Below, piece after piece: positions 5,206-57,756 of a stretch of DNA of 64,000 nucleotides; position 1 is the first letter of the stretch, and the number at the start of each line of letters is the position of its first letter. The position numbers were made by a program, and so were the translations under genes. The notes beneath the pieces are model-generated. The model saw nothing but the letters and a program-made list of their open reading frames with translations, did not search any database and was not told the DNA's origin. This stretch comes from Minisyncoccota bacterium (GTDB lineage: Bacteria; Patescibacteriota; Minisyncoccia; Phycocordibacterales; UBA9973), in contig JBAYLA010000002.1 in NCBI GenBank assembly GCA_041664285.1, forward strand, positions 1,349 to 65,348. Reading direction: 5' to 3'.

Positions 5206-7155
5206 TTATAGTAAATCTTCAGGATCTACAAGTACTTCGTAGGATGGAGGTAAAGAAGAAAGTAAATTAAACAGATTTTGGTCAATAGATGAACCATGAG
5301 AAAGTTCAGGCAGAGACCATTGTTTTAGCTCCAATTTTATTAAAGCATTTGTTCTATAATTATTTTTATTTTTTGCTATAAATCCACTGAATATTTCAGG
5401 ATTATATTCTTTAAAAATCTCCTTCAACATCTTCCTTGCTTTTTTTGTTTGTTCTTTATCTCCTTTGTAAGTGATTTTAATAAAACGCTTAAATGGGGGA
5501 TATCCTAAATTTTTTCTATCTTTTAATTCTTCACGCACAAAAGACAATAAATTAGATGTTTTGATTGCCAACATAGATGCATCATCCTCATTTTTAATCT
5601 GAATAATAACTTTCTCTTTTGTTCTATTAATTATTGAAAGTATTATTTGAATAATTTTTTCCCCCATTTGAAAATTAGGGATACTCCAAAGCGAATCAAA
5701 AGAAGCGATGACTGAAAATGCAACTTTTTCTTGAAGATAGAAGAATGCCATTTCTGTCCCAATCAGGATTGATCCTTTGTTTTCTTCAAAATCTTTTATA
5801 ATTTTTTTCGCACCTGAAGCTGTTTTTGCAGATTCTTTATCTAATTTAAAAATTTTAATTTTTGGAAAAAGTTTACTTATCTCTTCATGCACAGTGTCGG
5901 TGCCAATACCAAGGGGTAATAGATTCCAACCTCCACACAATGTGCAATTAGTGTCTCCATCTATGTTTATTTCACATCGATTACAAACGAATACCCTTTT
6001 TTTGTCTTTATGTGATGTATAAAGTACAAGGGGTGCTCCGCACTTTTTACAACTGACTGTTTCGTTACAGTCTTTACATAGGGTCATGGTCGCCAAGCCT
6101 TTTCTTAATGAAAAAATAAAAACATTTTTTTTGCTTTCTAGCGCCAATTTTATTTCCTTTATACTTTCGTCATTAAATATTTGGAATTTTTCTTTATTAT
6201 TTTTTTTCTTGCTTAAAATTTCTATTTCTCCTTCAAAATCAATTCTAAAAGACAAAGGATATAAAGGATTAAAATTATCTATATCTTTTCTTCCGATTGT
6301 TTCGTAACGGAGTATTTCATCAGCCATTATAAACCTTGCATTTATCTTTGAAGTATAAATTTCTACAAAAACTCTTAAATCGAGGTGGGGCATAGCGATC
6401 ATTTTATAAGCATTTGAATTTTCGTGTTCTAAAATTATGGTACCAATATCCTTTTTAGGAATAGAAAGAAAAGGAGGAGTACCAATGATTAAAACTGGAT
6501 GAGTAGCATTTATTATTTTTTCATAAGTCGTTAGATTTTTCTTTTTATTTATTCCACTTTGGATAGAAAAAGTAAATTGTTCAATGCCTTTTGATAATTG
6601 ATCAGTAAATTTTTCTATATCAAATTGGGTAGGCACGACCACAAAAATAGATTTACCTTTAGCAAAAGATTCACGAATAAGGGTTTTATAGATGGAGATA
6701 CGGTCTTCTAATGGATATTGAAATAATAATTTTTCTGTTCTTAATTTTTGTTCGTTTTTAAAAATGTCCTGGTGGCTATTTTTTATTTTTGCAATCTTGT
6801 CATATTCTTCTAAAAAGATATTTGGAATTAATGAAGCTAGGGTCTTATTTTTATTTTGAGCAAAGTATTTACTGGTATCAAAAATAGTATTTAGAAATTC
6901 TTTTAAAAAAACAGAGTCTCCTTTGTCCTTAGTGACTTTTCTTAAATTGAAATTCATGTTTTTTATATTACTTTTTCTTTCCGTTAATTCTTCGCTGGAC
7001 GTGACTAGAGCTAGAGTTTCTTTATTTCTTATTGGGACAGACACAATATTTCCAACAGCTATATCTAAATTAGAAAAATAGGTTAAATCGCCTCTTAGGG
7101 TGTTCTTTTTTAATGGTATGACTGATATAATTTTCATGATTTTATGTGGCGTCAA
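5206..7155 (-). CDS. priA: primosomal protein N' (PriA) homolog with degenerate helicase ATPase motifs
   Basis: N-terminal 3'-DNA-binding domain, Cys-rich zinc-binding insert (CKDCN...CKKCG...CNRCE...CTLCGG) and C-terminal LGYPPF motif typical of PriA; no GxGKT Walker A where expected and DEEH is replaced by LEHE. Confidence 0.65.
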   Translation of the reverse strand: MTPHKIMKIISVIPLKKNTLRGDLTYFSNLDIAVGNIVSVPIRNKETLALVTSSEELTERKSNIKNMNFNLRKVTKDKGDSVFLKEFLNTIFDTSKYFAQNKNKTLASLIPNIFLEEYDKIAKIKNSHQDIFKNEQKLRTEKLLFQYPLEDRISIYKTLIRESFAKGKSIFVVVPTQFDIEKFTDQLSKGIEQFTFSIQSGINKKKNLTTYEKIINATHPVLIIGTPPFLSIPKKDIGTIILEHENSNAYKMIAMPHLDLRVFVEIYTSKINARFIMADEILRYETIGRKDIDNFNPLYPLSFRIDFEGEIEILSKKKNNKEKFQIFNDESIKEIKLALESKKNVFIFSLRKGLATMTLCKDCNETVSCKKCGAPLVLYTSHKDKKRVFVCNRCEINIDGDTNCTLCGGWNLLPLGIGTDTVHEEISKLFPKIKIFKLDKESAKTASGAKKIIKDFEENKGSILIGTEMAFFYLQEKVAFSVIASFDSLWSIPNFQMGEKIIQIILSIINRTKEKVIIQIKNEDDASMLAIKTSNLLSFVREELKDRKNLGYPPFKRFIKITYKGDKEQTKKARKMLKEIFKEYNPEIFSGFIAKNKNNYRTNALIKLELKQWSLPELSHGSSIDQNLFNLLSSLPPSYEVLVDPEDLL

Positions 7156-9084: not shown

Positions 9085-9636
9085 ATGCAATACAATTTTT
9101 CAAATTTTAAAGTAGAGCTTAAAAAAACAGAAGATTTCTTAGGCAAAGAATACACTCAGCTTAACATTGGACGAGCGTCACCCATGATCCTCGATGGTGT
9201 GTCTGTCGAATCATATGGTTCATATGTTCCATTAAAAAATGTAGCTTCTATTTCTATTGAAGACCCAAAAACATTACGCATTGCCCCTTGGGATAAATCT
9301 CAAATAAAAGCGATTGAAAAGGCTATTGTTGGTTCAAATTTAGGGTTGTCTGTGGCGACTGATGATTTAGGTATAAGAGTTATTTTTCCACAATTAACTA
9401 CCGAAACGAGGAAAACCTTGGTAAAAGTTTTAAAAGAAAAATTAGAAGAAAGTAGAATTATTGTGCGACGTCTTCGTGAAGCTGTGGTGGTTGAGATAGA
9501 GAAACAAGAAAAAGAAGGTAAAATGACCGAAGATGAAAGATTTCGCGCGAAAGAAGAATTACAGAAAATTATCACTGAAACAAATAGCAAACTAGAAGCA
9601 ATCTTTGAGAAAAAGGAGAGTGAAGTAATGGGATAG
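9085..9636 (+). CDS. frr: ribosome recycling factor
   Basis: 183 aa, conserved RRF pattern (RASPMILDGVSVESYG...LRIAPWDKS...EDERFRAKEELQKI). Confidence 0.85.
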   Translation: MQYNFSNFKVELKKTEDFLGKEYTQLNIGRASPMILDGVSVESYGSYVPLKNVASISIEDPKTLRIAPWDKSQIKAIEKAIVGSNLGLSVATDDLGIRVIFPQLTTETRKTLVKVLKEKLEESRIIVRRLREAVVVEIEKQEKEGKMTEDERFRAKEELQKIITETNSKLEAIFEKKESEVMG

Positions 9637-9641
9637 AAAAT

Positions 9642-10775
9642 ATGAGTATCGTAATTTTTATAATAATTCTATTAGTTCTCGTTCTAGTCCATGAGTTTGG
9701 GCATTTTTTTACCGCGAAGAGTTTTGGTATAAAGGTTGAGGAATTTGGTTTTGGTTTTCCGCCCAAGTTATTTAGTTTTAAAAAAGGGGAGACGGAATAC
9801 AGTTTTAATTTATTACCCTTAGGTGGATTTGTAAAAATTTTTGGAGAAACTGTTGATGAAGCTGATTTTGTAGAAGTGGGATTTTTAGATAAAAAAGAAA
9901 CTCCAGAAAAAGTTGAATTGGCGGAAAGAAGCCTGGCGAACAAGCCAAAATGGCAACAAGCCTTAGTACTTTTTGCTGGGATTTTCGCTAATTTTTTATT
10001 AGCTTGGCTTTTATTTTCTATTGGTTTTATGTCTGGATTTCCTACTTCGGTTGGAAGTGAGTCCGCCGGTTATAAATTAGAAAATATAAATTTAGTCATT
10101 GTTTCTGTTTTAGCCAAGTCTCCCGCTGAAAATGCTGGACTTAAGGCTGGTGATAAAATAATTAATATAAAAAGTGGTGATAATTTCACCACAAATATTA
10201 GTCCTGAAACTGTTAAATCTTTTGTTGTTGAAAATAGAGGAAAAGAAATTGATATTGGATATTTACGGGGGAAAAATTCTGAAGTAAATATTGCCAAAAT
10301 AAATCCTAAAGAAATTAACGGAGAACCTACCATTGGGATTTCTATGGATCAAATAGGAACAGCTAAATTGCCATTTTTTTCAGCAATTTGGCAGGGGTTG
10401 CGTTTAGACCTACTTATGACAAAAAGTACTGCCGTAGGGCTTTATACGCTTGTTTCTGAGGCCATAAAGGGTAAAGGAAGCCTTGCTACAGTTACAGGAC
10501 CTATCGGCATGGTGGGCATTGTCGGAGATGCCTATCAATTTGGCTTTGTTTACCTTTTGTCTTTTGCAGCACTTATTTCGATAAATCTTGCAATCATAAA
10601 TCTTATTCCATTTCCGGCTCTTGATGGTGGGCGACTTTTCTTTTTATTGATTGAAAAAATAAAAGGTTCTCGTATAAATCCAAAAGTTGCAAATACTATG
10701 AATATGATTGGTTTTTATCTCCTAATATTTCTAATGCTCTTCATTACTTATCGTGATGTTATTAAATTGTTTTAG
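9642..10775 (+). CDS. rseP: RIP zinc metalloprotease RseP (site-2 protease) with PDZ domain
   Basis: N-terminal TM plus HEFGH zinc motif, LPLGGFV, central PDZ-like segment, C-terminal LDGG motif. Confidence 0.85.
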   Translation: MSIVIFIIILLVLVLVHEFGHFFTAKSFGIKVEEFGFGFPPKLFSFKKGETEYSFNLLPLGGFVKIFGETVDEADFVEVGFLDKKETPEKVELAERSLANKPKWQQALVLFAGIFANFLLAWLLFSIGFMSGFPTSVGSESAGYKLENINLVIVSVLAKSPAENAGLKAGDKIINIKSGDNFTTNISPETVKSFVVENRGKEIDIGYLRGKNSEVNIAKINPKEINGEPTIGISMDQIGTAKLPFFSAIWQGLRLDLLMTKSTAVGLYTLVSEAIKGKGSLATVTGPIGMVGIVGDAYQFGFVYLLSFAALISINLAIINLIPFPALDGGRLFFLLIEKIKGSRINPKVANTMNMIGFYLLIFLMLFITYRDVIKLF

Positions 10776-10812: not shown

Positions 10813-12522
10813 ATGAACAGCGAAATTAAGAATTGTCAAAATTGTAAAAAGGATTTCACTATTGAACCAGAAGATTTTGATTTTTATGAAAAAATAAAAG
10901 TTCCTCCACCTACTTTTTGTCCAGACTGTAGGTTGATGAGACGTCTTTTATGGCGCAATGAACATTCATTATTTCGTAGTCCTAACGGAGAAAAAGGAAA
11001 ATCTAATTTAATTATATCTATCTATCATCCAGACTCTAAGCTAATATCTTACGATAAAGAAATGTGGTGGAGTGATAAATGGGATCCTTGTGATTATGGC
11101 ATAGGGTATGATTTTTCAAGGTCATTTTTTGAACAATTTAAAGAACTTCTAGAAAAAGTTCCACACTTAGCATTATCTAATTCAAATTCTATAAATTCTA
11201 GATTTTGCCAGACAGCAGTTGAGCTAAAAAATTGCTATTTGGTAGGTTCTAGTATGGCGTGTGAAGATTCTATGTATTGTAATCGTATCTTTCATTGTAA
11301 ATTTACACACGACTCTTATATTTGTTATTCTACAGAATTTGGTTATGACAATGTATATTGTCGTGAATCTAGTAAATTATTTTTTTCCAGAGAAAGCGAA
11401 AGTTGTTTGGACTCATATTTTCTTTATGATTGCAGAAATTGCTCTAGTTGTATTTTATGTACTAATTTAAGAAATAAAAGCTATTGCATAGAAAACATAC
11501 AATACAACAAAGAAGAATATATAAAAAAGAAAAAAGAACTTGCTTTAAATACTCGTTTTGGTATAGAAAAAGCAAGAATTAGATTTGAACAGTTATGGCG
11601 TGATGCATTTCATAAACATTTAAAACTTACTAATACTGTAAATGTTATTGGAGATCAAGTTAAAGATTCTCGTAACTGCTACTACGTTTTTGACCTAGAA
11701 GGAGAAGCGGAAAATGTAAAATATGCTCACTGGGGCTCTAAGGGAACACGTGATTCTTATGACGTTGGACCTGGATGTGGCAATAATGCTGAGCTTCTTT
11801 ATGAAGGTATAAGTACTGGAGTGCAGAACAGTCGAGCTTTTTTTAACGCTGTAGTTTGGTATTCCAATAATATTTATTATAGTTATATGCTAAACAATTG
11901 CCAAAATTGTTTCGGTTGTGCTGAAATGAATAGCAAGCAGTATTGTATTCTAAACAGACAATATACAAAAAAAGAATATGAAAATTTAATGCCAAAGATA
12001 GTTGAACAGATGAAAAATGTTCCTTATATAGACAAAAAAGGCAATATATATAGTTTTGGAGAATTTTTCCCTCCAGAAATATCCCCATTTACTTATAATG
12101 AAACAGTAGCACAGGATTATTTTCCATTAGACAAAAGAAGAGCTGAGGCGGAGGGGTATTCTTGGCGAGAATATCAACCTAGTTCTTATCAAATTACCAT
12201 CAATGGGCAAGATTTACCTCAAGCTATTTCCGAGGTAAATGATTCAATCTTAAATGAGGTTATTGAATGCGAAATTACTAAAAAACCTTTTAAAATTCTT
12301 GAGCAAGAGTTGAGTTTTTATCGAAGACTTGATTTACCACTTCCATCAATTCATCCTGACGAAAGGCACAACAGAAGATTAAAACTTCGCAATCCGATGG
12401 TTTTAAATAAAAGGATGTGCTTCTTTGGAGATGAAGAAGTTCTGACAACTTATTTACCAGAATCTAAAGGTGGTCCGAAAAAAGTAGTATGTACAAAACA
12501 TTACAATCAAGAGATTTATTAA
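10813..12522 (+). CDS. large cysteine-rich protein of unknown function (paralog A, 569 aa; N- and C-terminal zinc-ribbon-like CxxC pairs and many internal CxxC/NC..C motifs)
   Basis: uninterrupted ORF; clear paralog of 56026..57756 (shared blocks CQNCKK.F.I..EDF.FYEKIKV.PPTFCP.CR..RR, YDFS.SFFEQF, CR.C..C.LC.NLRNK..C, NC..C..CFGC, VIEC....KK.F....E.L.YLR). Confidence 0.8.
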   Translation: MNSEIKNCQNCKKDFTIEPEDFDFYEKIKVPPPTFCPDCRLMRRLLWRNEHSLFRSPNGEKGKSNLIISIYHPDSKLISYDKEMWWSDKWDPCDYGIGYDFSRSFFEQFKELLEKVPHLALSNSNSINSRFCQTAVELKNCYLVGSSMACEDSMYCNRIFHCKFTHDSYICYSTEFGYDNVYCRESSKLFFSRESESCLDSYFLYDCRNCSSCILCTNLRNKSYCIENIQYNKEEYIKKKKELALNTRFGIEKARIRFEQLWRDAFHKHLKLTNTVNVIGDQVKDSRNCYYVFDLEGEAENVKYAHWGSKGTRDSYDVGPGCGNNAELLYEGISTGVQNSRAFFNAVVWYSNNIYYSYMLNNCQNCFGCAEMNSKQYCILNRQYTKKEYENLMPKIVEQMKNVPYIDKKGNIYSFGEFFPPEISPFTYNETVAQDYFPLDKRRAEAEGYSWREYQPSSYQITINGQDLPQAISEVNDSILNEVIECEITKKPFKILEQELSFYRRLDLPLPSIHPDERHNRRLKLRNPMVLNKRMCFFGDEEVLTTYLPESKGGPKKVVCTKHYNQEIY

Positions 12523-12528
12523 AAAATT

Positions 12529-13260
12529 ATGAAAACAAAATTAATTCATGAAATCAGGGCGGTAAAGAATAAGAAAGAACTTGTTAATATTATTAGAGCA
12601 CAGAGGATAAGTGAAAAAGTATTAAAAGAAGTACTTAGTAAATTAAAAACAGGCATAACAGAAATTGAAATTGCAAATTTTATTAAAAAATCTTTTGTAA
12701 AGTACGGTATGCATATATTATCTTTTACCCCCATTGTTTCTTTTGGTAAAAATACCGCGAATGTTCATCATGAGCCCAGTAAAACTAAATTAAAGAAAGG
12801 GGACATAATAATGCTTGATTTTGGCTGTACGGTGAACCATTTTTGTTCAGACATGACAAGGACATATTTCTGGGGCGAGCCATCAGAAAAAGGAAAGCGA
12901 ATTTATTTAGCTGTTTTAAAAGCTCAAGAACTTGCTTTAAATAAAATAAAAAATGGTGAACGCAGAGCGAAGACAATAGATAAAGTAGCAAGAGATTTTT
13001 TAAATAAGAAATATAGAAATAAATTCTTACATGGGCTTGGTCATGGGGTTGGTACTGTGATTCACGAATGGCCGAATTTTAAACCAAAGAGCAAAGACAT
13101 TGTTCCAGTGGGGTGTGTGATGACCGTAGAGCCCGGTTTGTATTTAAAAGGTTTTGGTGGTGTGCGAATCGAAGATATGGTTTTAATTACCAAGAATGGC
13201 TGTAAGAATTTAACAAATTTCCCCAAAGATCTTAAAAGTGCCATACTTCCAATTAAATAA
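12529..13260 (+). CDS. M24-family metallopeptidase, catalytic domain only (Xaa-Pro / methionine aminopeptidase-like)
   Basis: pita-bread motifs HGLGHGVGTVIHEWP and GGVRIEDMVLIT; 243 aa. Confidence 0.7.
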   Translation: MKTKLIHEIRAVKNKKELVNIIRAQRISEKVLKEVLSKLKTGITEIEIANFIKKSFVKYGMHILSFTPIVSFGKNTANVHHEPSKTKLKKGDIIMLDFGCTVNHFCSDMTRTYFWGEPSEKGKRIYLAVLKAQELALNKIKNGERRAKTIDKVARDFLNKKYRNKFLHGLGHGVGTVIHEWPNFKPKSKDIVPVGCVMTVEPGLYLKGFGGVRIEDMVLITKNGCKNLTNFPKDLKSAILPIK

Positions 13261-13296: not shown

Positions 13297-13325
13297 TTGA
13301 CTTTTCTATTTTTATCTTATAAAAT
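13297..13325 (+). promoter_or_regulatory. sigma70-like promoter TTGACT-N17-TAAAAT upstream of ddl
   Basis: hexamers and spacing seen directly. Confidence 0.45.
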
Positions 13326-13356: not shown

Positions 13357-15774
13357 ATGTCTGTTAAAACCACTAAAAACAAGATAAGTGTTGCGGTGCT
13401 CTGTGGAGGTCCTTCACTTGAGCGTGGAATATCACTTAACTCTGCAAGAAGTGTGCTCGATCATCTAGGTAGCCAAGGTGTAGGAATTATTCCAATTTAT
13501 TTTAATGAACAAAAAAAGCCTTATAAGATTTCTACCGCTCAACTTTATTCCAACAATCCTTCTGATTTTGATTTTAAATTAAATAAATCTAGTAAAGAGC
13601 TTTCAGAATCAGAGCTTATAAAAATTTTAAAAAGTGTTAGCATTACTTTTCCGTGTATTCATGGAGCATTTGGTGAGGATGGAGAAATACAAAGTTTTCT
13701 AGAAAAACACAGCATTCCTTTTGTCGGATCCAACTCAGTGTCCTGCAAAAAAGCCTTTGATAAATTTAAAGCAAATGAATATATTAGATCTCTCGGATTT
13801 TACGCTCCACAATCTATTTTATTGAAAATTACCGATAGTGAAAAAGAAATTAGAAAAAAAGTACAAGATTTTTGGAAAAATCAAAAAATAACTCGTGCGA
13901 TAGTAAAGCCTGCTTCCGGAGGGTCAAGTATTGGTGTATTTTCTGTTAATAAAGCAAGTGAAGCCATAGAAAGTATTAAAACTTTATTTAGTAAACGGAT
14001 GGATACACGCGTGGTCATCGAACCCTTTATTCAAGGTAAGGAATTCACGGTTATTATTTTACAGAATAGATTTAATATGCCGGTAGCAATTTTGCCGACT
14101 GAAATGGAAATGGATTATGACAAGCATCAATTTTTTGATTTTCGTAAAAAATATTTACCGACACGTCAAGTTACTTATCATTGCCCTCCACGATTTCCAA
14201 ATGAAATAATAGAAAAAATACAAATAGAAGCTGAGCAATTGTTTTCTGTTTTTGGAATGCAAGATTTTGCTCGTTTTGATGGATTTCTTTTACCCGACGG
14301 TAATGTTTGGTTTTGTGACTTTAATCCAATTTCTGGAATGGAACAGAATAGTTTCTTGTTTCAGCAGTCATCTCGAATTGGTCTTTCCCATCAGGACCTT
14401 TTACGTTTTATCATCAACAACGCTTGTTTGCGTAGGAATATACCAGTAGTAATTGAAAATGTCTTTTCCGACAAAAAACTTGTCCGCCGTGGTGGGCGAA
14501 AACCGCTTGCTGTACTTTTTGGTGGTGAAACTGCAGAAAAACAAGTTTCACTGATGAGTGGTACCAATGTTTGGCTGAAATTACGAGGATCTACAGTTTA
14601 CAAACCACGTCCATTTCTTCTGGTTGGGAAAAAAGAAGTTTGGGAACTTCCTTATTCTTACATCTTAAATCATACAGTTGAAGAAATAATAGAAAATGCA
14701 GAAAAAGCTCCACGAGACAGTGAGAGATTATTTTTTCTAATTGAAAAAGTAAAAATGAGATTATTCCTACAAAAATCAGATGCTACTGAGGATTTCTTTA
14801 TGCCGAAAAAGCATACCCTGGATAAAATTTTGAAACAATATTCAAATATATTTTTAGCTCTTCATGGTGGAGTGGGTGAAGACGGAACGATTCAAAGAAT
14901 TTTAGAAAAAAATAAAATTAAATACAATGGTTCGGATAGTCTTACTTCAAAATTATGTATAGATAAATGGCTAACTAGTGAAATGATCTTGCAAGCAAAT
15001 ATAAAAGGTGTCAGTGTTGCTCCGCATGTTTTATTAAAAATTAAGGATTTTTCTAAATTATCTGACGATAAAATTAAAGAAGCTTACTGGGCCATGCTTC
15101 TTAAAACACTTGGAACAAAAACAATTATTGCGAAGCCCAGAAGTGATGGTTGTTCGGCTGGAGTGGTGAGGCTTTTTAATAAAAAAGATTTATCCACTTA
15201 CATTTCTTTTGTAAAAAATAAATACACAGTTGCACCCTTGGGTACCTTTACTAGTCAGCGTGGCATTACCCAAATGCCTGAAGGAGAGGTAGCGGATATT
15301 ATTTTTGAATCTTTTATAGAGACTGATAAGTTAAAAATTAGTGGAGATAAAATTTCTCATATTCGAAAAAGTGGTTATGTGGAGATGACGGTGGGAGTGA
15401 TAGAAGACAAAGGTCACCTTAGGGCACTATCTCCAAGTATTACTGTGGCAGAAGAAACGGTTTTGAGTGTTGAAGAAAAATTCCAAGGTGGTACTGGTGT
15501 CAATATTACCCCTCCTCCTAAGGAAATTATTTCCATGAAAAATGTGAATAAGGTGAAAAAATCTATTGAGTTAGTAGCTAAAAAAATTGGGATTCGTGGA
15601 TACGCAAGAATTGATATTTTTGTTCAAATTAAAACTGGTGATATTATTATTATTGAAATAAATACTCTCCCTGGGCTTACTCCTTCGACGGTTATTTATC
15701 ACCAAGCTTTAGCTGAAAAAGAGCCGATGTCCCCAATAAAATTTTTGGAACTTATAACTGAAAACAAAAAATAA
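13357..15774 (+). CDS. ddl: tandem fusion of two D-alanine--D-alanine ligase (ATP-grasp) modules, 805 aa
   Basis: two successive Ddl-like units, each with an N-terminal motif (ISVAVLCGGPSLERGISLNSA / LAVLFGGETAEKQVSLMSG), a central ATP-grasp segment (AIVKPASGGSSIGV / IIAKPRSDGCSAGV) and a C-terminal motif (FARFDGF...CDFNPISG / ARIDIFV...EINTLPGLTP). Confidence 0.75.
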   Translation: MSVKTTKNKISVAVLCGGPSLERGISLNSARSVLDHLGSQGVGIIPIYFNEQKKPYKISTAQLYSNNPSDFDFKLNKSSKELSESELIKILKSVSITFPCIHGAFGEDGEIQSFLEKHSIPFVGSNSVSCKKAFDKFKANEYIRSLGFYAPQSILLKITDSEKEIRKKVQDFWKNQKITRAIVKPASGGSSIGVFSVNKASEAIESIKTLFSKRMDTRVVIEPFIQGKEFTVIILQNRFNMPVAILPTEMEMDYDKHQFFDFRKKYLPTRQVTYHCPPRFPNEIIEKIQIEAEQLFSVFGMQDFARFDGFLLPDGNVWFCDFNPISGMEQNSFLFQQSSRIGLSHQDLLRFIINNACLRRNIPVVIENVFSDKKLVRRGGRKPLAVLFGGETAEKQVSLMSGTNVWLKLRGSTVYKPRPFLLVGKKEVWELPYSYILNHTVEEIIENAEKAPRDSERLFFLIEKVKMRLFLQKSDATEDFFMPKKHTLDKILKQYSNIFLALHGGVGEDGTIQRILEKNKIKYNGSDSLTSKLCIDKWLTSEMILQANIKGVSVAPHVLLKIKDFSKLSDDKIKEAYWAMLLKTLGTKTIIAKPRSDGCSAGVVRLFNKKDLSTYISFVKNKYTVAPLGTFTSQRGITQMPEGEVADIIFESFIETDKLKISGDKISHIRKSGYVEMTVGVIEDKGHLRALSPSITVAEETVLSVEEKFQGGTGVNITPPPKEIISMKNVNKVKKSIELVAKKIGIRGYARIDIFVQIKTGDIIIIEINTLPGLTPSTVIYHQALAEKEPMSPIKFLELITENKK

Positions 15775-15778
15775 CAAA

Positions 15779-16915
15779 ATGCAAAGAAAAATATTTCTTT
15801 CTTGTATAGAATTATCGAAAAAGAACCTTATTTATAATTTTAAACAATTTAAAAACTTAGCTAAAAAGGGGACTAAGTTTTCTGTTGTGGTAAAAGGGAA
15901 CGCTTATGGCCATGGGCAAAATGAAATAGTAAAAATTTTAGATCCTTTTGTAGATTATTTTCAAGTTGATAGTATCTCTGAGCTTAAATTATTACGTAAA
16001 ATAAGTACTAAAAAAACATTTGTTTTAGGGTATATTCAAAACATAGATTTAAGGCAAGCCATTAAACTTGGATGCATACTGTCAATTTTTTCAATACAAG
16101 AATTAAAACAAGTAGAGAAGACTGCAAAAAAACTTAAAATAATACAAGAGATCCACATACCCTTCGATGCATATTTAGGACGAGAAGGTTTCTTATTAGA
16201 TGAATTACCAAAACTTTTTATAGAAATTAAAAAATGTAGGAATATAAAATTTTCTGGTATGTATGCACACTTTGCAAACATTGAAGATACTACAAATTTT
16301 TCTCATGCCCAAAAACAAATTAAGGAATTCAAAAAAGCTTTAAAGTTAGCAGATAAATTTAATTTTAACAACTTACAAACGCATATCTCTGCCACTTCTG
16401 GACTTTTAGCTTATGAAAAAGATCATGGAATTCATTCGATTATTCGTTTAGGAATCGGAGTATATGGCATGTGGCCATCAGAACACTTAAGGTCTATTTA
16501 TAAAAATAAATTTAGTTTGAAATCTGTACTAACATGGAAAACAAAAATCACGCAAATTAAAATTTTACCAGAAGGCCATACTATTGGTTATGGATTAACC
16601 TATAAAACAAAGAAGAAAACAAAGATTGCTATTATCCCACAAGGTTATGCAGATGGTTTTGATAGAGGTTTTTCAAATAATGGATTTGTCTTGATCGGTG
16701 GTAGTAGGTGTAAAATATTAGGACGAGTGATGATGAATATGTTTGTAGTGGATATAAATCATTTAAAGAAAGCTCAAGAGGAAGATGATGTAGTAATAAT
16801 AGGAGTTCAAGGTAAAGAGGAAATTACGGCAGAAGAGAATGCTGAGCGTATAAATACTATTAATTACGAGATAACTACACGTATTAGTGCACTATTGCCT
16901 AGAGTTATTATTTAA
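15779..16915 (+). CDS. alr: alanine racemase
   Basis: PLP-lysine motif VVKGNAYGHG, 378 aa, immediately downstream of ddl. Confidence 0.9.
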   Translation: MQRKIFLSCIELSKKNLIYNFKQFKNLAKKGTKFSVVVKGNAYGHGQNEIVKILDPFVDYFQVDSISELKLLRKISTKKTFVLGYIQNIDLRQAIKLGCILSIFSIQELKQVEKTAKKLKIIQEIHIPFDAYLGREGFLLDELPKLFIEIKKCRNIKFSGMYAHFANIEDTTNFSHAQKQIKEFKKALKLADKFNFNNLQTHISATSGLLAYEKDHGIHSIIRLGIGVYGMWPSEHLRSIYKNKFSLKSVLTWKTKITQIKILPEGHTIGYGLTYKTKKKTKIAIIPQGYADGFDRGFSNNGFVLIGGSRCKILGRVMMNMFVVDINHLKKAQEEDDVVIIGVQGKEEITAEENAERINTINYEITTRISALLPRVII

Positions 16916-17120: not shown

Positions 17121-17151
17121 GAAATACCCCTTAAGGGGATTTCTTTTTTTG
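17121..17151 (+). terminator. rho-independent terminator after rpmG (GAAATACCCC-TTAA-GGGGATTTC followed by T7)
   Basis: GC-containing hairpin with one bulge, then TTTTTTT on the + strand. Confidence 0.6.
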
Positions 17152-18240
17152 TTATTTCTATGGTATTTTATAAATATGGTGAAAGAAAGTATTTCTTTCA
17201 ATTCTAATAGAATTGAAATATCTAAATTAAGGGCAGCTTTGTTGAAAGCTGAAGCTAAAGGGGACGAAGAGGCAGTTCTCGCCCTAGAAGCAGAGTTGAG
17301 AGCTCTTGAAAAAGGGGAAGTTTTTAATCGTGAACAATTTTTACTTGAAAGAGCCGAAGTTGAAAAATCAAAACAGCCAATTACAAAAAACAATAAACAT
17401 AATATTTTAAAAGAAATGCAAGATCTTTCAAAATCGGATAAGATAGAAGCAGATAGTTGGACATATGATGGAATACATGAATATGATCCAGGAAAATATT
17501 CTAAAGATAAATCTTATGAAAATACTTTTAGAGGTATTTTAGACAAAATGCATTGCGTAAGTTTTACAGAGTTAGTTAAAAATAAATCTTTAGAGTTAGG
17601 TAGAAAAATTGAAGTAATGGATTTATTTGGCGGAGCTTATTTTTTAAGTGACTTAGAAAATGTTTCTAGAATAATAGGAGTTCGCACTAGAAATATTGAT
17701 GAAATACTTCTACAAGATTTAAAAGAAAGTAAACTACTGAATCTTGAGAAAATTCTCCCAGAAGAATTTAAAGGATTAGATATTAGAATTAATGATTATA
17801 TTAAAAAAGTTAGTGAACTAATGAATGACAAAAAACGATTAATAATAGAGGGTAATTTGTATAAAGGAAAAACATGGAAAAAATTAACTAAGTATAGTAA
17901 ATTAGGAGAGAATCATGGTTTTGATCTTATTGTTTGTAGACCACAAGGAGTTTTCAATGGAATATCAAGTGCTAAAAATATTACAAACATAGATAATAAA
18001 GAGTTCCACAAAGAAGAAATTTTTCTTTCTCTACTTGAAAGAACTTTAAAATTATTGTCTCCTGATGGTGGTGTATTTTTTACACAACTTCCTAATTTTG
18101 ATACAAAAGATGATATTTTAAACAATTTTATGTATGAATACATAAAAAAGAAAGAAAAAGAGGGGTATGAATTTTTAAGTGGTAAAGATGGTACATCAGA
18201 AGGAAATAAGGTCATAGCATTTAAAAGAATAAAAAACTAA
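17149..18240 (+). CDS. hypothetical protein; coiled-coil N-terminus and a C-terminal region reminiscent of a Rossmann methyltransferase, with DPPY replaced by CRPQ (probable start ATG 17176)
   Basis: VMDLFGGAY (motif I-like), FDLIVCRPQG (motif IV position), LLSPDGGVFFTQLP; weak, fold-level only. Confidence 0.4.
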   Translation: MLFLWYFINMVKESISFNSNRIEISKLRAALLKAEAKGDEEAVLALEAELRALEKGEVFNREQFLLERAEVEKSKQPITKNNKHNILKEMQDLSKSDKIEADSWTYDGIHEYDPGKYSKDKSYENTFRGILDKMHCVSFTELVKNKSLELGRKIEVMDLFGGAYFLSDLENVSRIIGVRTRNIDEILLQDLKESKLLNLEKILPEEFKGLDIRINDYIKKVSELMNDKKRLIIEGNLYKGKTWKKLTKYSKLGENHGFDLIVCRPQGVFNGISSAKNITNIDNKEFHKEEIFLSLLERTLKLLSPDGGVFFTQLPNFDTKDDILNNFMYEYIKKKEKEGYEFLSGKDGTSEGNKVIAFKRIKN

Positions 18241-18941: not shown

Positions 18942-19994
18942 ATGTATTTTATTAAAATTATTGGAAAAGTATTAGTTATTATTTTTGCTATAATTGGGCT
19001 TGTTTTTGCCGGTGTTTTTGTCGCGATGAAGCTTGGTTGGACCAACGTGAGAGGAACTATTAAAGAGCGTAATTCAGCTTATTTTCAAGATATTAGTAAT
19101 AGCCAAACTGTAAGTGGAGATGAAAATAAAGAAATAATTTTATCTTGCAAGATTCATGCACTTTTTAATTACGCACCAGATACAGCCAACAAAATAGACA
19201 CAGAATACAGAATGATCGGCAACGTAGCATTTATAGAAAAAATGCTTGAATATGCCTTGATTCGTTATAGAGATACCGCCCTTGTTTCTGATTTTAATAA
19301 TTGTAATGGGGCAACGATACTGGACAAAACTCCACTTGCGCAGACTGCATACGCCTGGGCTGATTCTGACGAATGGGGAGTTTTAAAATTTGTCTTTACT
19401 CGTGATCAAGATATTATAAAAAAGGCAGCGAAGGATGCCGGTATTTCTCCTAGAATTTTACTCGGCGGTGTTATTGGAGAACAATTAAGATTTTTCTCTA
19501 ATCGACGTGAGTCATTTAAAGCATATTTTGAACCATTGAAGATTCTTGCGACCTTATCAAGTTTCTCATATGGTATTGCTGGATTGAAGCCAGACACTGT
19601 TGCAAAAATTGATGATAATTTAAAGAACAAAAATTCTGTTTTTTATCTTGGGAGTAGTATGGAAAACGTCATTACATATCCGGAAGGTGAAAACATAGAA
19701 AAGTTACGTTTTGAAAGAATTACAGACACGAAGAATACATATTATTCTTATCTATATGTTGGGCTTTTTATGCGACAAGTTACTGCCCAATGGTTGGCGT
19801 CTGGTTATGACATTAGGAATCGTGTTGGTATACTTTCTACTCTATATAATCTTGGATTTAATCGCTCAATACCAAAGCCTGATGCTTCTCTTGGAGGGTC
19901 AAGTATTACTATAAATGATCAAGAGTATAGTTTTGGTGAGTTGGGTGAGGAGTTTTATTATTCAGGTGAGTTACTTAGAGAATTTCCATTATAA
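18942..19994 (+). CDS. hypothetical membrane-anchored protein (N-terminal TM helix, 350 aa)
   Basis: ORF with hydrophobic N-terminus MYFIKIIGKVLVIIFAIIGLVFAGVFVAM; no recognisable domain. Confidence 0.5.
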   Translation: MYFIKIIGKVLVIIFAIIGLVFAGVFVAMKLGWTNVRGTIKERNSAYFQDISNSQTVSGDENKEIILSCKIHALFNYAPDTANKIDTEYRMIGNVAFIEKMLEYALIRYRDTALVSDFNNCNGATILDKTPLAQTAYAWADSDEWGVLKFVFTRDQDIIKKAAKDAGISPRILLGGVIGEQLRFFSNRRESFKAYFEPLKILATLSSFSYGIAGLKPDTVAKIDDNLKNKNSVFYLGSSMENVITYPEGENIEKLRFERITDTKNTYYSYLYVGLFMRQVTAQWLASGYDIRNRVGILSTLYNLGFNRSIPKPDASLGGSSITINDQEYSFGELGEEFYYSGELLREFPL

Positions 19995-31437: not shown

Positions 31438-32289
31438 ATGCAAAAAAGAAACGTTTTAAATTCTCCGCGTCTTTTGGAATTAAAAAAACATCGGCGGAGA
31501 GTTGTTTTAATTAAAATTTTTATGTCCCTGCTCGCATTTTCGGTGGTTTTTTTCCTATTAGCTTATTTTTCTAATTTAAAAAGTTTAAATATTAGTAATG
31601 TTGAAATCACTGGTAATAAGGTAATAGATACAGAAGCTTTACAAGGAACGGTGGAAGAGCAAATAACTGGAAAATATCTTTGGCTTTTTCCGAAAACAAA
31701 CATTTTACTTTATCCTAAAAATAGTATAAAAAATACACTTCAAGAAAAATTTAAAAGACTGAATAATATGAATTTATCAATTAAAAATAATACCTTAGAA
31801 GTCTCTCTAGGTGAACGCACTGCGAAATATACTTGGTGTGGTACTGAATCCCCAGAAGCACCTCTCCAAAACCAGCAATGTTATTTTGTTGACGAAGATG
31901 GTTATGTTTTTGATGAGGCTCCTTATTTTTCTGGTGAAGTTTATTTTAAATTTTATGGTGTTCAATCCGAATCTTATTTTTATAAGCAGAATTTTAAACA
32001 ATTAATTGCTTTTAAGGATATCCTTATCGGCTTAGATTTGAAACCTATTATTCTATATGTCGCAAACAATGGTGATGTAGAAATATTTCTTTCCAAAGGT
32101 ATATCTTCAGTTTCAACTATTGGGCCTAAAATTATTTTTAAATTAAATGCTGATTTTGAAAATGTTGCGGAGAATCTAGGCGCAGCCTTGAATAATGAAC
32201 CATTAAAGTCAAAATTCAAAAATAAATATTCCTCACTTTTATATGTTGATTTACGATTTGGAAATAAAGTTTATGATAAATTCCAGTAA
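31438..32289 (+). CDS. FtsQ/DivIB-like cell division protein (TM plus POTRA)
   Basis: basic cytoplasmic N-terminus, one TM, then POTRA-like ISNVEITGNKVIDTEALQ and LEVSLGERTAKYTWC. Confidence 0.5.
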   Translation: MQKRNVLNSPRLLELKKHRRRVVLIKIFMSLLAFSVVFFLLAYFSNLKSLNISNVEITGNKVIDTEALQGTVEEQITGKYLWLFPKTNILLYPKNSIKNTLQEKFKRLNNMNLSIKNNTLEVSLGERTAKYTWCGTESPEAPLQNQQCYFVDEDGYVFDEAPYFSGEVYFKFYGVQSESYFYKQNFKQLIAFKDILIGLDLKPIILYVANNGDVEIFLSKGISSVSTIGPKIIFKLNADFENVAENLGAALNNEPLKSKFKNKYSSLLYVDLRFGNKVYDKFQ

Positions 32290-56025: not shown

Positions 56026-57756
56026 ATGAAAGAAGAAATAAAAACACAATCTACGATATGCCAGAATTGCAAAAAGAACTTTGCCATAGACGTGGAAGAT
56101 TTTAATTTTTATGAAAAAATAAAAGTTTCACCACCTACTTTTTGTCCGGAATGCAGAATGCAAAGACGATTTGGCTATAGAAACGAACGTACTCTTTATC
56201 GTCGTAAGTGTGCCTTAACTGGTAAAGATGTTATTTCTTGCTTTGCGCCAGAAGTCCCTTTTAAAGTTATTGATCGTGATTTATGGTGGGGAGATAATTG
56301 GAACGAACTTGAAAGTGGTCGTGATTATGATTTTTCTAAATCATTTTTTGAACAATTTCATAAGCTTATGCAAGAAACTTACATGCCTGCACTTTTTATC
56401 GGCAAATGCGTGAATACAAAATATGGCAATCATATTGGCGAATTTAAAAATGCTTATCTTGTTTCTGCTTCGTGGATGGGAGAAGACATAATGTATGCTT
56501 CTCGTTGTAATTCTTGTAAAAATTCACTTGATATGTTCTCAACTTTTGAATGTCAGTTTTGTTATGGAGATATAGCTTGTATAAAATGCAACACCGTCTA
56601 TTTTTCAGAATACGCAACAGCTTGTTCGAGTTCAGCATTCCTTTATAATTGTCGTGGATGTATGGACTGTTTTTTGTGTTCAAATTTACGAAATAAACAA
56701 AATTGTTTTATGAACGAACAACTTTCTAAAGAGGAGTATAAAAAGCGTTTAGAAGAATACGAAATTGGTACTTGGTCTGGACTACAAAAAGCAAAAAATG
56801 CTTTCGAAAATCTAAAAAAAGAAACGATAAGGCGTTATGCGATAGTAATAAACTCTCAAAATGTGACTGGTGACAATATCACCAATGCCTTTAATCTTAA
56901 ACAATGTTTTGACGTAGCTAATCATATAAAAGATTGTTGTTATATTACAAACTCTCTTGATCGAGTTGAAGATTGTTATGATGGGCATGGTTTGGCTTCT
57001 ATTACCACCGGTCTAGAAATGATTGATACAGGAGACGAAGCTGGGCGTTGTTTCTTTGTGGCGACGGTGTGGGGAAGTCAAGATATGTGGTATTCATATA
57101 ATTGTCACAGCTGTAATAATTGTTTTGGTTGTGTGTGTTTAAAGAAAAAGTCTTATTGTGTTTTTAATAAACAATATTCAAAAGAAGAATATTTAATTTT
57201 AAAAGACAAAATTATTGAACAAATGAAAAAAGTACCTTTTATCGATAAAAAAGGGCGTATACATTCTTTCGGTGATTATTTTCCTGTAGAGCTTTCACCC
57301 TTTGCATATAATAAAACTATTGCCCAAGATTATTTTCCTAAGAGTAAAGAGGAAATAGAAAAAGAAGGTTGGTTTTTTGCAGAAATGAAACAAAGTGAAT
57401 ATACTATAACAAAACGTGAAAAAGATATTCCCGATTCAATTAATGATATTCAGGATTCTTTTGTTAACGAAGTTATTGAATGTACAATGTGTAAAAAAGC
57501 TTTTCGGGTAATGGAAAATGAACTTATTTATTTACGTAAGTTTGGTATTGCTGTTCCACGTTATTGTTTTGAGTGCCGCCACTTAGAAAGATTTTCAATG
57601 GTGAATTTACCAAGACTGTACCATAGACAATGTATGTGCGATAAGGAAAATCATAATCATGATGGAAATTGTATTAATAAATTTGAAACAAGCTACGCAC
57701 CCGATCGACCAGAGATAGTGTATTGTGAAAAATGTTACCAACAAGAAGTTTACTAG
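56026..57756 (+). CDS. large cysteine-rich protein of unknown function (paralog B, 576 aa), inserted between purL and purQ
   Basis: paralog of 10813..12522 (see there); no signal peptide. Confidence 0.8.
   Translation: MKEEIKTQSTICQNCKKNFAIDVEDFNFYEKIKVSPPTFCPECRMQRRFGYRNERTLYRRKCALTGKDVISCFAPEVPFKVIDRDLWWGDNWNELESGRDYDFSKSFFEQFHKLMQETYMPALFIGKCVNTKYGNHIGEFKNAYLVSASWMGEDIMYASRCNSCKNSLDMFSTFECQFCYGDIACIKCNTVYFSEYATACSSSAFLYNCRGCMDCFLCSNLRNKQNCFMNEQLSKEEYKKRLEEYEIGTWSGLQKAKNAFENLKKETIRRYAIVINSQNVTGDNITNAFNLKQCFDVANHIKDCCYITNSLDRVEDCYDGHGLASITTGLEMIDTGDEAGRCFFVATVWGSQDMWYSYNCHSCNNCFGCVCLKKKSYCVFNKQYSKEEYLILKDKIIEQMKKVPFIDKKGRIHSFGDYFPVELSPFAYNKTIAQDYFPKSKEEIEKEGWFFAEMKQSEYTITKREKDIPDSINDIQDSFVNEVIECTMCKKAFRVMENELIYLRKFGIAVPRYCFECRHLERFSMVNLPRLYHRQCMCDKENHNHDGNCINKFETSYAPDRPEIVYCEKCYQQEVY

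Follow-up and report, generated by a model that had tools for sequence, protein, structure and literature searches.

Plant-type tandem D-alanine–D-alanine ligases predicted in a Minisyncoccota bacterium and across many bacterial phyla

[quoted passage not shown] The ORF occupies 13357..15774 on the forward strand, begins with ATG and specifies 805 amino acids (aa) plus a stop codon. Judged by sequence, tandem Ddl is a large and ancient family, of which the window gene is a bacterial member and to which plant DDL also belongs. The two modules are, by the same alignments, not copies of each other: an asymmetry between their active sites appears fixed from bacteria of the candidate phyla radiation (CPR) to angiosperms. 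We consider it likely that the gene is the organism's D-Ala-D-Ala ligase for peptidoglycan precursors, and that tandem Ddl in general supplies D-Ala-D-Ala.

Two Ddl modules in one chain

Ddl is normally a homodimer with one complete active site in each subunit. The window protein instead joins two of them in a single polypeptide: Dala_Dala_lig_N and Dala_Dala_lig_C are each detected by Pfam in two stretches, one per module, and the gathering score of PF01820 and PF07478 is exceeded (149.5 and 156.9 bits; E 8e-44 and 6e-46). When the protein was split at residue 378 and the halves were tested separately, the TIGR01205 model (cutoff 245.65 bits) gave 344.3 bits for the whole protein, 215.1 for the N half and 134.7 for the C half. 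It matched the N half from end to end and the C half in two pieces, leaving a stretch of the central domain unmatched; numerous further Ddl models also match either half by itself. In the PDB, sequence matches of both halves comprise only D-Ala-D-Ala, D-Ala-D-Lac and D-Ala-D-Ser ligases, and the halves are recognizably related to each other (25% identity, E 5e-18; profile-profile probability 99.9%). The original prediction, made from the letters of the window, that one 805-aa protein holds two complete Ddl modules is thus borne out. A second half drawn from some other ATP-grasp family would have refuted it, but only Ddl and Van models and structures match that half. The specific candidates of this kind, glutathione synthetase-like and cyanophycin synthetase-like enzymes, were rejected; they gave weak, sub-threshold matches, all of them within the first half.

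Domain and residue evidence delimits an N-type module (residues 1-360, 13357..14436) and a C-type module (residues 381-805, 14497..15771), both on the forward strand like all features of the gene given below. They are joined by a linker (residues 361-380, 14437..14496, NIPVVIENVFSDKKLVRRGG) whose alignment columns are poorly conserved. The three-domain ATP-grasp fold of Escherichia coli DdlB (2DLN/1IOV) and of DdlA-type enzymes (3I12, 3K3P) is common to each module. The C module differs from canonical Ddl in carrying two insertions. The first (residues 437-470, 14665..14766, beginning LNHTVEEI) has no counterpart in DdlB or in the N module and is modelled as a long helix (residues 441-469), with LNHTVEEI invariant in the close family. 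The second, of approximately residues 618-672 (15208..15372), lies in the central ATP-grasp domain, includes a beta-hairpin, and is delimited by the split hidden Markov model match, the alignments and the structural model.

The AlphaFold2 model of the 805-aa protein has a predicted local distance difference test (pLDDT) score of 86 and a predicted template modelling score (pTM) of 0.85. The linker block at residues 371-380 has a mean pLDDT of 61, and disorder within the chain is confined to the two omega-loops, where pLDDT is low at residues 260-262 (N module) and below 50 at residues 699-713 (C module). In Ddl these loops act as lids that close over the substrates. Because the pTM of the two-module chain is 0.85, the model implies a defined packing between the modules, which would fit a covalently linked Ddl dimer. 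Foldseek matches in the PDB reach template modelling (TM) scores of 0.78-0.87 when normalised to the target and at most 0.39 when normalised to the query, and every match spans one module. Since these fold matches are all single-module Ddls, no tandem Ddl structure is solved.

A fixed asymmetry between the active sites

Residues were numbered after E. coli ddlB (from NC_000913) and mapped by three routes, namely a MAFFT alignment, the C profile against the N profile, and each of the two profiles against DdlB, with concordant results. The classical dipeptide-ligase triad is present in the N module, with Glu22/Ser190/Tyr266 at DdlB Glu15/Ser150/Tyr216, and this module also keeps Lys136, Lys184, Glu222, Glu229, Lys265, Arg306, Asp308 and Asn323. 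DdlB Glu270 corresponds here to Asp321, within a motif that reads DFNPISGM (NPISG, not NTxPG). In the C module the triad positions are filled by Glu394/Cys599/Phe709, so that Cys replaces Ser150 and Phe replaces Tyr216. Here Lys537, Lys593, Glu651, Glu676, Lys708, Arg751, Asp753, Glu767 and Asn769 are intact, Thr778 stands for Ser281 and Val779 for Leu282, and the EINTLPGL motif is canonical. An EINT.PG motif had been reported for both halves; this is right for the second (EINTLPG, residues 767-773), whereas the first reads DFNPISG. The motifs TAEKQVSL and RSDGCSAGV, quoted in the original prediction for the second module, are correct.

The positions that distinguish the modules can be located on the DNA from the alignments. 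The Cys599 codon, at the DdlB Ser150 position, is 15151..15153. The N-module omega-loop (DKHQFFDFRKKYLPTRQVTYHCPP, 14119..14190) contains Lys265 and Tyr266 (Tyr266 codon 14152-14154), and the C-module omega-loop (EETVLSVEEKFQGGTGVNITPPP, 15451..15519) contains Phe709 (codon 15481-15483) at the DdlB Tyr216 position. The latter loop is nearly invariant in the family, as EEKFQGGTGxNxTPPP.

Both modules share the full ATP, Mg and catalytic set of canonical Ddl, in which Asp321 of the N module is the single, conservative change, and the N module shares its triad as well. Among 115 full-length close homologues (at least 58% identity), both modules retain DdlB Lys97, Lys144, Glu180, Glu187, Lys215, Arg255, Asp257, Asn272 and Gly276. 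Each of the N-module active-site residues is invariant or near-invariant in this set (at least 114 of 115 homologues), and those of the C module are likewise near-invariant. Beyond the close homologues, we compared 150 cluster representatives, 80 genome loci and the plant DDLs. Each module has its own signature, S/Y/D...SG in the N module and C/F/E...PG with T in the C module, and each signature is by far the commonest in all three samples (117 of 119 in the plant DDLs). Departures are scattered single substitutions only (for example in proteins P0246 and P0270 and at loci L034 and L071), down to 29% identity in Dependentiae. In these 150 representatives and 80 loci, catalytic residues are not systematically lost from either module in any lineage.

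Distribution of the tandem architecture

An exhaustive HMMER search with the diverged C half returned representatives of 282 clusters, formed at 50% identity, at E < 1e-30. At least 120 Patescibacteria clusters consist of proteins of approximately 800 aa that are 58-85% identical to the window protein. Among the best 150 of the 282 representatives, an N-type module lies upstream of the C-type module in 130, and the other 20 are C-only proteins that mostly start in mid-domain. Four of these 20 were inspected, of which three lie at contig edges (P0172, P0146, P0167) and one on a frameshift-ridden contig (P0216). The original prediction had proposed comparing split and fused forms among relatives; no genuine split form was found among the 150 representatives, with four of the 20 C-only proteins inspected.

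When one genome per GTDB species was scanned, a locus with N-type and C-type Ddl in tandem turned up in at least 581 of these genomes. They come from many classes of Patescibacteria and from Chlamydiae, Bdellovibrionota, Alpha- and Gammaproteobacteria, Actinomycetes, Clostridia, Planctomycetota, Holophagae and Dependentiae; the Actinomycetes members include complete Dactylosporangium genomes. Given this spread and the architecture of plant DDL, a Ddl-Ddl fusion, first described for this window as unusual, is so only by comparison with textbook Ddl. In databases the bacterial members go by the names D-alanine--D-alanine ligase, ATP-grasp domain-containing protein or hypothetical protein. The entry identical to the window protein (P0001), from a metagenome-assembled genome (MAG), is an [quoted passage not shown]. 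Nothing relevant on bacterial tandem Ddl, on "two ATP-grasp domains" or on Patescibacteria Ddl was found in the literature searched.

Two loci from the scan deserve separate mention. In a Mycobacteriales MAG (L067, 6274-8464), the N and C modules lie in separate ORFs of 294 and 401 aa, which may represent a frameshift, a pseudogene or a real split. In Candidatus Moanabacter (L027), an additional 278-aa ORF with a C-module-like signature (9540-10376) lies approximately 1.1 kb downstream of the fused gene and may be a partial duplicate.

Relationship to plant DDL

An earlier paper describes plant DDL as two DDL enzymes fused into one (PMC9954125). Our search recovered a Coffea protein of 956 aa (P0192), with its N module at residues 76-462 and its C module at 495-948, and it has relatives of approximately 950 aa throughout the angiosperms, many of them named "D-alanine--D-alanine ligase (family)". 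The Coffea protein is 42% identical to the window protein across both modules, and it is collinear with bacterial members over approximately 880 residues, again through both modules, at 40-42% identity. In 117 of 119 angiosperm DDLs, an 18-residue signature of the active site is identical to that of the window protein in both modules. Plant and window proteins are also alike in having the N-type module before the C-type and in a probable link to the supply of D-Ala-D-Ala for peptidoglycan. They differ in that the plant protein has an N-terminal extension of approximately 80 aa, presumably a transit peptide, and a nuclear gene, while the window gene forms an operon-like pair with the alanine racemase gene alr.

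Because at least 581 bacterial species across many phyla carry tandem Ddl, the fusion very probably predates its arrival in plants. The bacterial tandem Ddls nearest to plant DDL in our data belong to the CPR groups Peregrinibacteria and Peribacteria (L012, L016, L019, L023, L040, L044; 40-42% over approximately 880 residues), as measured by pairwise identities in a sample biased towards relatives of the query; the published closest group is the FCB group (PMC9434261).

Peptidoglycan genes next to and fused with tandem Ddl

As originally predicted, the Ddl-Ddl gene is followed directly by alr (15779..16915, forward strand; 378 aa; TIGR00492, 266 bits against a cutoff of 168). The gap between stop and start is 4 nt and a terminator scan found no terminator-like site in it; alr is probably co-transcribed with the Ddl-Ddl gene.

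When every ORF lying within 6 kb of the fused gene was clustered for the 80 loci, in an unbiased way, one broadly conserved class of neighbour emerged, comprising alanine racemase and Mur-ligase genes (24 of 80 loci). In 21 of 80, a racemase domain is encoded no more than 6 kb away, either by free alr or within a MurF-Alr fusion. At eight Patescibacterial loci (L002, L004, L008, L009, L014, L017, L019, L025) the gene directly downstream is free alr, Actinomycetes have a bifunctional MurF-Alr as neighbour (NF008897, scoring up to 554 bits), and murF follows directly in an alphaproteobacterium; murC is nearby elsewhere, and in Bdellovibrionales too a gene of this set (MurF-Alr, murF or murC) adjoins. 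The remaining clusters contain only an aminotransferase of class I/II, which recurs in six loci, and housekeeping genes. No vanH-like dehydrogenase, vanX or serine-racemase-specific gene recurs at the 80 loci, and neither a vanH- nor a vanX-type gene stands beside the window gene.

Some proteins extend the fusion further: Ddl-Ddl-MurF (P0141, 1262 aa), Ddl-Ddl-MurF-Alr (P0196, 1638 aa), Ddl-Ddl followed by a class I/II aminotransferase (P0025/P0047, approximately 1180 aa, Paceibacteria) and Ddl-Ddl-PASTA (P0240/P0241, approximately 1250 aa). MurC-Ddl of Chlamydia (NF011171) and MurF-Alr (NF008897) follow the same logic, in which enzymes that act consecutively or cooperate in peptidoglycan precursor synthesis are fused. 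Unlike them, the window protein is without a Mur ligase or racemase domain and is a duplication-type fusion of paralogous modules.

Two of these arrangements stand somewhat apart. A PASTA domain is a strange partner for an enzyme that should act in the cytoplasm. In Actinomycetes, an alphaproteobacterium and Clostridia (L045, L047, L051, L053, L055, L057, L084), a pyridoxal phosphate-dependent class I/II aminotransferase recurs beside tandem Ddl and is often accompanied by MurF-Alr, and in Actinomycetes the aminotransferase/MurF-Alr/Ddl-Ddl group looks like a separate cassette. The large genomes of Actinomycetes are expected to hold a canonical ddl too.

Proposed function and its alternatives

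We place the enzyme in the Alr, Ddl, MurF branch of peptidoglycan precursor synthesis because of its neighbours (alr, murF, MurF-Alr), the Ddl-Ddl-MurF(-Alr) fusions and moss genetics, as far as the latter is recounted in the sources below. In the proposed mechanism, the racemase encoded by the adjoining alr would make D-Ala, and the fused enzyme would use ATP to form D-alanyl phosphate and condense it with a second D-amino acid. MurF would then add the resulting dipeptide to UDP-MurNAc-tripeptide. The protein would act as a covalent hetero-pair of Ddl modules replacing the usual homodimer, and on the structural model we infer that the modules pack like a Ddl dimer. Both would be competent for catalysis without being equivalent, the N module having the classical Glu/Ser/Tyr site and the C module the fixed Glu/Cys/Phe variant.

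The product, we infer, is D-Ala-D-Ala. This is favoured because the Van-type models score below their cutoffs, vanH and vanX are absent from the neighbourhoods, and moss peptidoglycan precursors end in D-Ala-D-Ala (PMC9434261). On the D-Ala-D-Lac model NF000206, whose cutoff is 550 bits, the whole protein reaches 172.9, the N half 102 and the C half 77; for the D-Ala-D-Ser models, the whole protein scores 244 against 495 (VanG) and 207 against 520 (D_ala_D_ser). The moss genetics, in the accounts that cite Hirano 2016 (PMC9954125, PMC7432710), is that knock-out of DDL abolishes the D-Ala dimerisation needed for plastid peptidoglycan.

Several points weigh against a D-Ala-D-Ala ligase with two working sites. 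The N module has Asp at the position of the Mg ligand Glu270, and the C module is without the Ser and Tyr of the triad, having Phe as in depsipeptide ligases (PMC5996685). Neither module alone reaches the TIGR01205 cutoff (215 and 135 against 245.65 bits). The ligase activity of the bacterial tandem members is a prediction from sequence, and in plants the ligase function of AtDDL or of its C half is still to be shown (PMC9954125). Finally, DDL is kept in plants that have no MurF (PMC4815162), which hints at an additional or different role.

One reading of the asymmetry, with a precedent in the original prediction, is that the protein is a plain covalent dimer, in which both sites make D-Ala-D-Ala and the fixed differences are structural adaptations of an asymmetric pseudo-dimer. 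This is quite plausible, although we stop just short of calling it probable. An ordinary Ddl is already a homodimer with a full site per subunit, the pTM of 0.85 points to fixed packing, all chemistry-essential residues are kept in both modules, and the moss genetics, as cited above, points to D-Ala-D-Ala. However, the positions that have changed (Ser150/Tyr216 and the Mg ligand Glu270) belong to the active site and not to the interface, and their invariance over such an evolutionary distance is hard to attribute to packing alone.

A second possibility is that the protein is a bifunctional ligase, with D-Ala-D-Ala made at the N site and another product (D-Ala-D-lactate, D-Ala-D-Ser or another D-Ala-D-X) at the C site. 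The original prediction had similarly suggested altered specificity for one module, of the D-Ala-D-Ser or D-Lac type. The first part of that suggestion retains some merit, since by three alignment methods the C module differs at specificity positions, with Phe709 at Tyr216 and Cys599 at Ser150. DdlB mutants Y216F and S150A gain D-Ala-D-Lac activity. In lactic acid bacteria, Phe or Tyr at this position decides between depsipeptide and dipeptide synthesis (PMC5996685), and Phe-type D-Ala-D-lactate ligases such as Leuconostoc LmDdl2 (1EHI), a single-module structural match to the window protein (TM 0.84), resemble the C module in this respect; unlike LmDdl2 or VanA, the C module has a Tyr-type module joined to it. 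That the module differences are frozen across phyla and plants argues for a selected function rather than drift, and the retention of DDL in plants without MurF would fit as well. The second part fares worse, the curated D-Lac and D-Ser models being far from their cutoffs and vanH- or vanX-type and serine-racemase-specific genes being absent as recurring neighbours at the 80 loci. VanC-type enzymes have Arg at the Leu282 position, where tandem Ddl has Val or Cys. The D-Ala-D-Ala ends of moss precursors also count against a second product (PMC9434261). We regard a bifunctional ligase as unlikely, and judge the broader proposal, that the two sites differ in function across the whole family with the Cys/Phe site having another product or another kinetic or regulatory regime, to be no more probable.

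Still less probable is that one module has become a catalytically dead scaffold or regulatory pseudo-enzyme, which we think very doubtful. The substitution of Glu270 by Asp and of NTxPG by NPISG in the N module, the missing Ser and Tyr in the C module and the sub-cutoff TIGR01205 scores of the single halves could be read in this way. Pseudo-enzymes, however, lose catalytic residues, whereas the 115 homologues and 119 plant DDLs invariably keep, in each of their modules, the lysines that bind ATP, the Mg ligands, Arg255 and Lys215, and the 150 representatives and 80 loci show scattered single substitutions with no lineage-wide decay. Because no lineage has lost catalytic residues systematically, both sites are, on this comparative evidence, very probably active, and a pseudo-enzyme module is therefore unlikely. 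That two adjoining ddl genes were merged by a sequencing or gene-calling error, for which nothing but the unusual length speaks, is refuted by the identical NCBI protein, the continuous 805-codon frame, the more than 100 full-length homologues on independent contigs, the N-then-C order in 130 of 150 representatives and at 581 or more genome loci, and the position of all four apparent stand-alone C modules inspected, at contig edges or on a frameshift-ridden contig.

Other features of the window

The window has a G+C content of approximately 32% and encodes no other Ddl. Besides mreB, it carries a gene of the EPSP_synthase family that resembles MurA. Within the 96 nt that separate the Ddl-Ddl ORF from the gene upstream, a weak sigma-70-like promoter match (TTGACT-17-TAAAAT, 10/12; 13297..13325, forward strand) does not rise above background, as the region has 22 such matches against a shuffled expectation of 19.8. 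A terminator-like hairpin with a T-run (14489-14513, forward strand) lies within the ORF at the exact module junction and is probably due to chance, with 5 such sites in the region against 2.6 expected.

Of the genes upstream, an M24 peptidase (12529-13260) was considered as a part of the system and rejected, as it is kept only in close relatives (3 of 80 loci). A Cys-rich 569-aa ORF in the same orientation (10813-12522, forward strand), with repeated CxxC motifs and no Pfam match, is likewise kept only in close relatives (2 of 80 loci). Five further ORFs of 283-649 aa are without a Pfam family at E <= 1e-4 (1e-2 for the second of them): 5206-7155 on the reverse strand, and 17149-18240, 18942-19994, 31438-32289 and 56026-57756 on the forward strand.

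Implications

For the bacterium itself, the window gene probably represents the ordinary cell-wall housekeeping of a candidate-phyla organism. Its wider interest lies in the family. In the literature searched, the double DDL is discussed only for plants, yet it is a widespread bacterial architecture, present in at least 581 species. We found no description in the searchable literature of the breadth of this bacterial distribution, nor of the frozen Ser/Tyr versus Cys/Phe asymmetry common to plants and bacteria. The automatic names "hypothetical" and "ATP-grasp domain-containing" that many members carry could be improved.

For cell-wall researchers, the asymmetry provides a testable handle on the role of each DDL half. 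If the two sites do differ in function, the plant DDL family would be a family of bifunctional ligases extending from CPR bacteria to angiosperms, and this could explain why DDL has been retained in plants without MurF.

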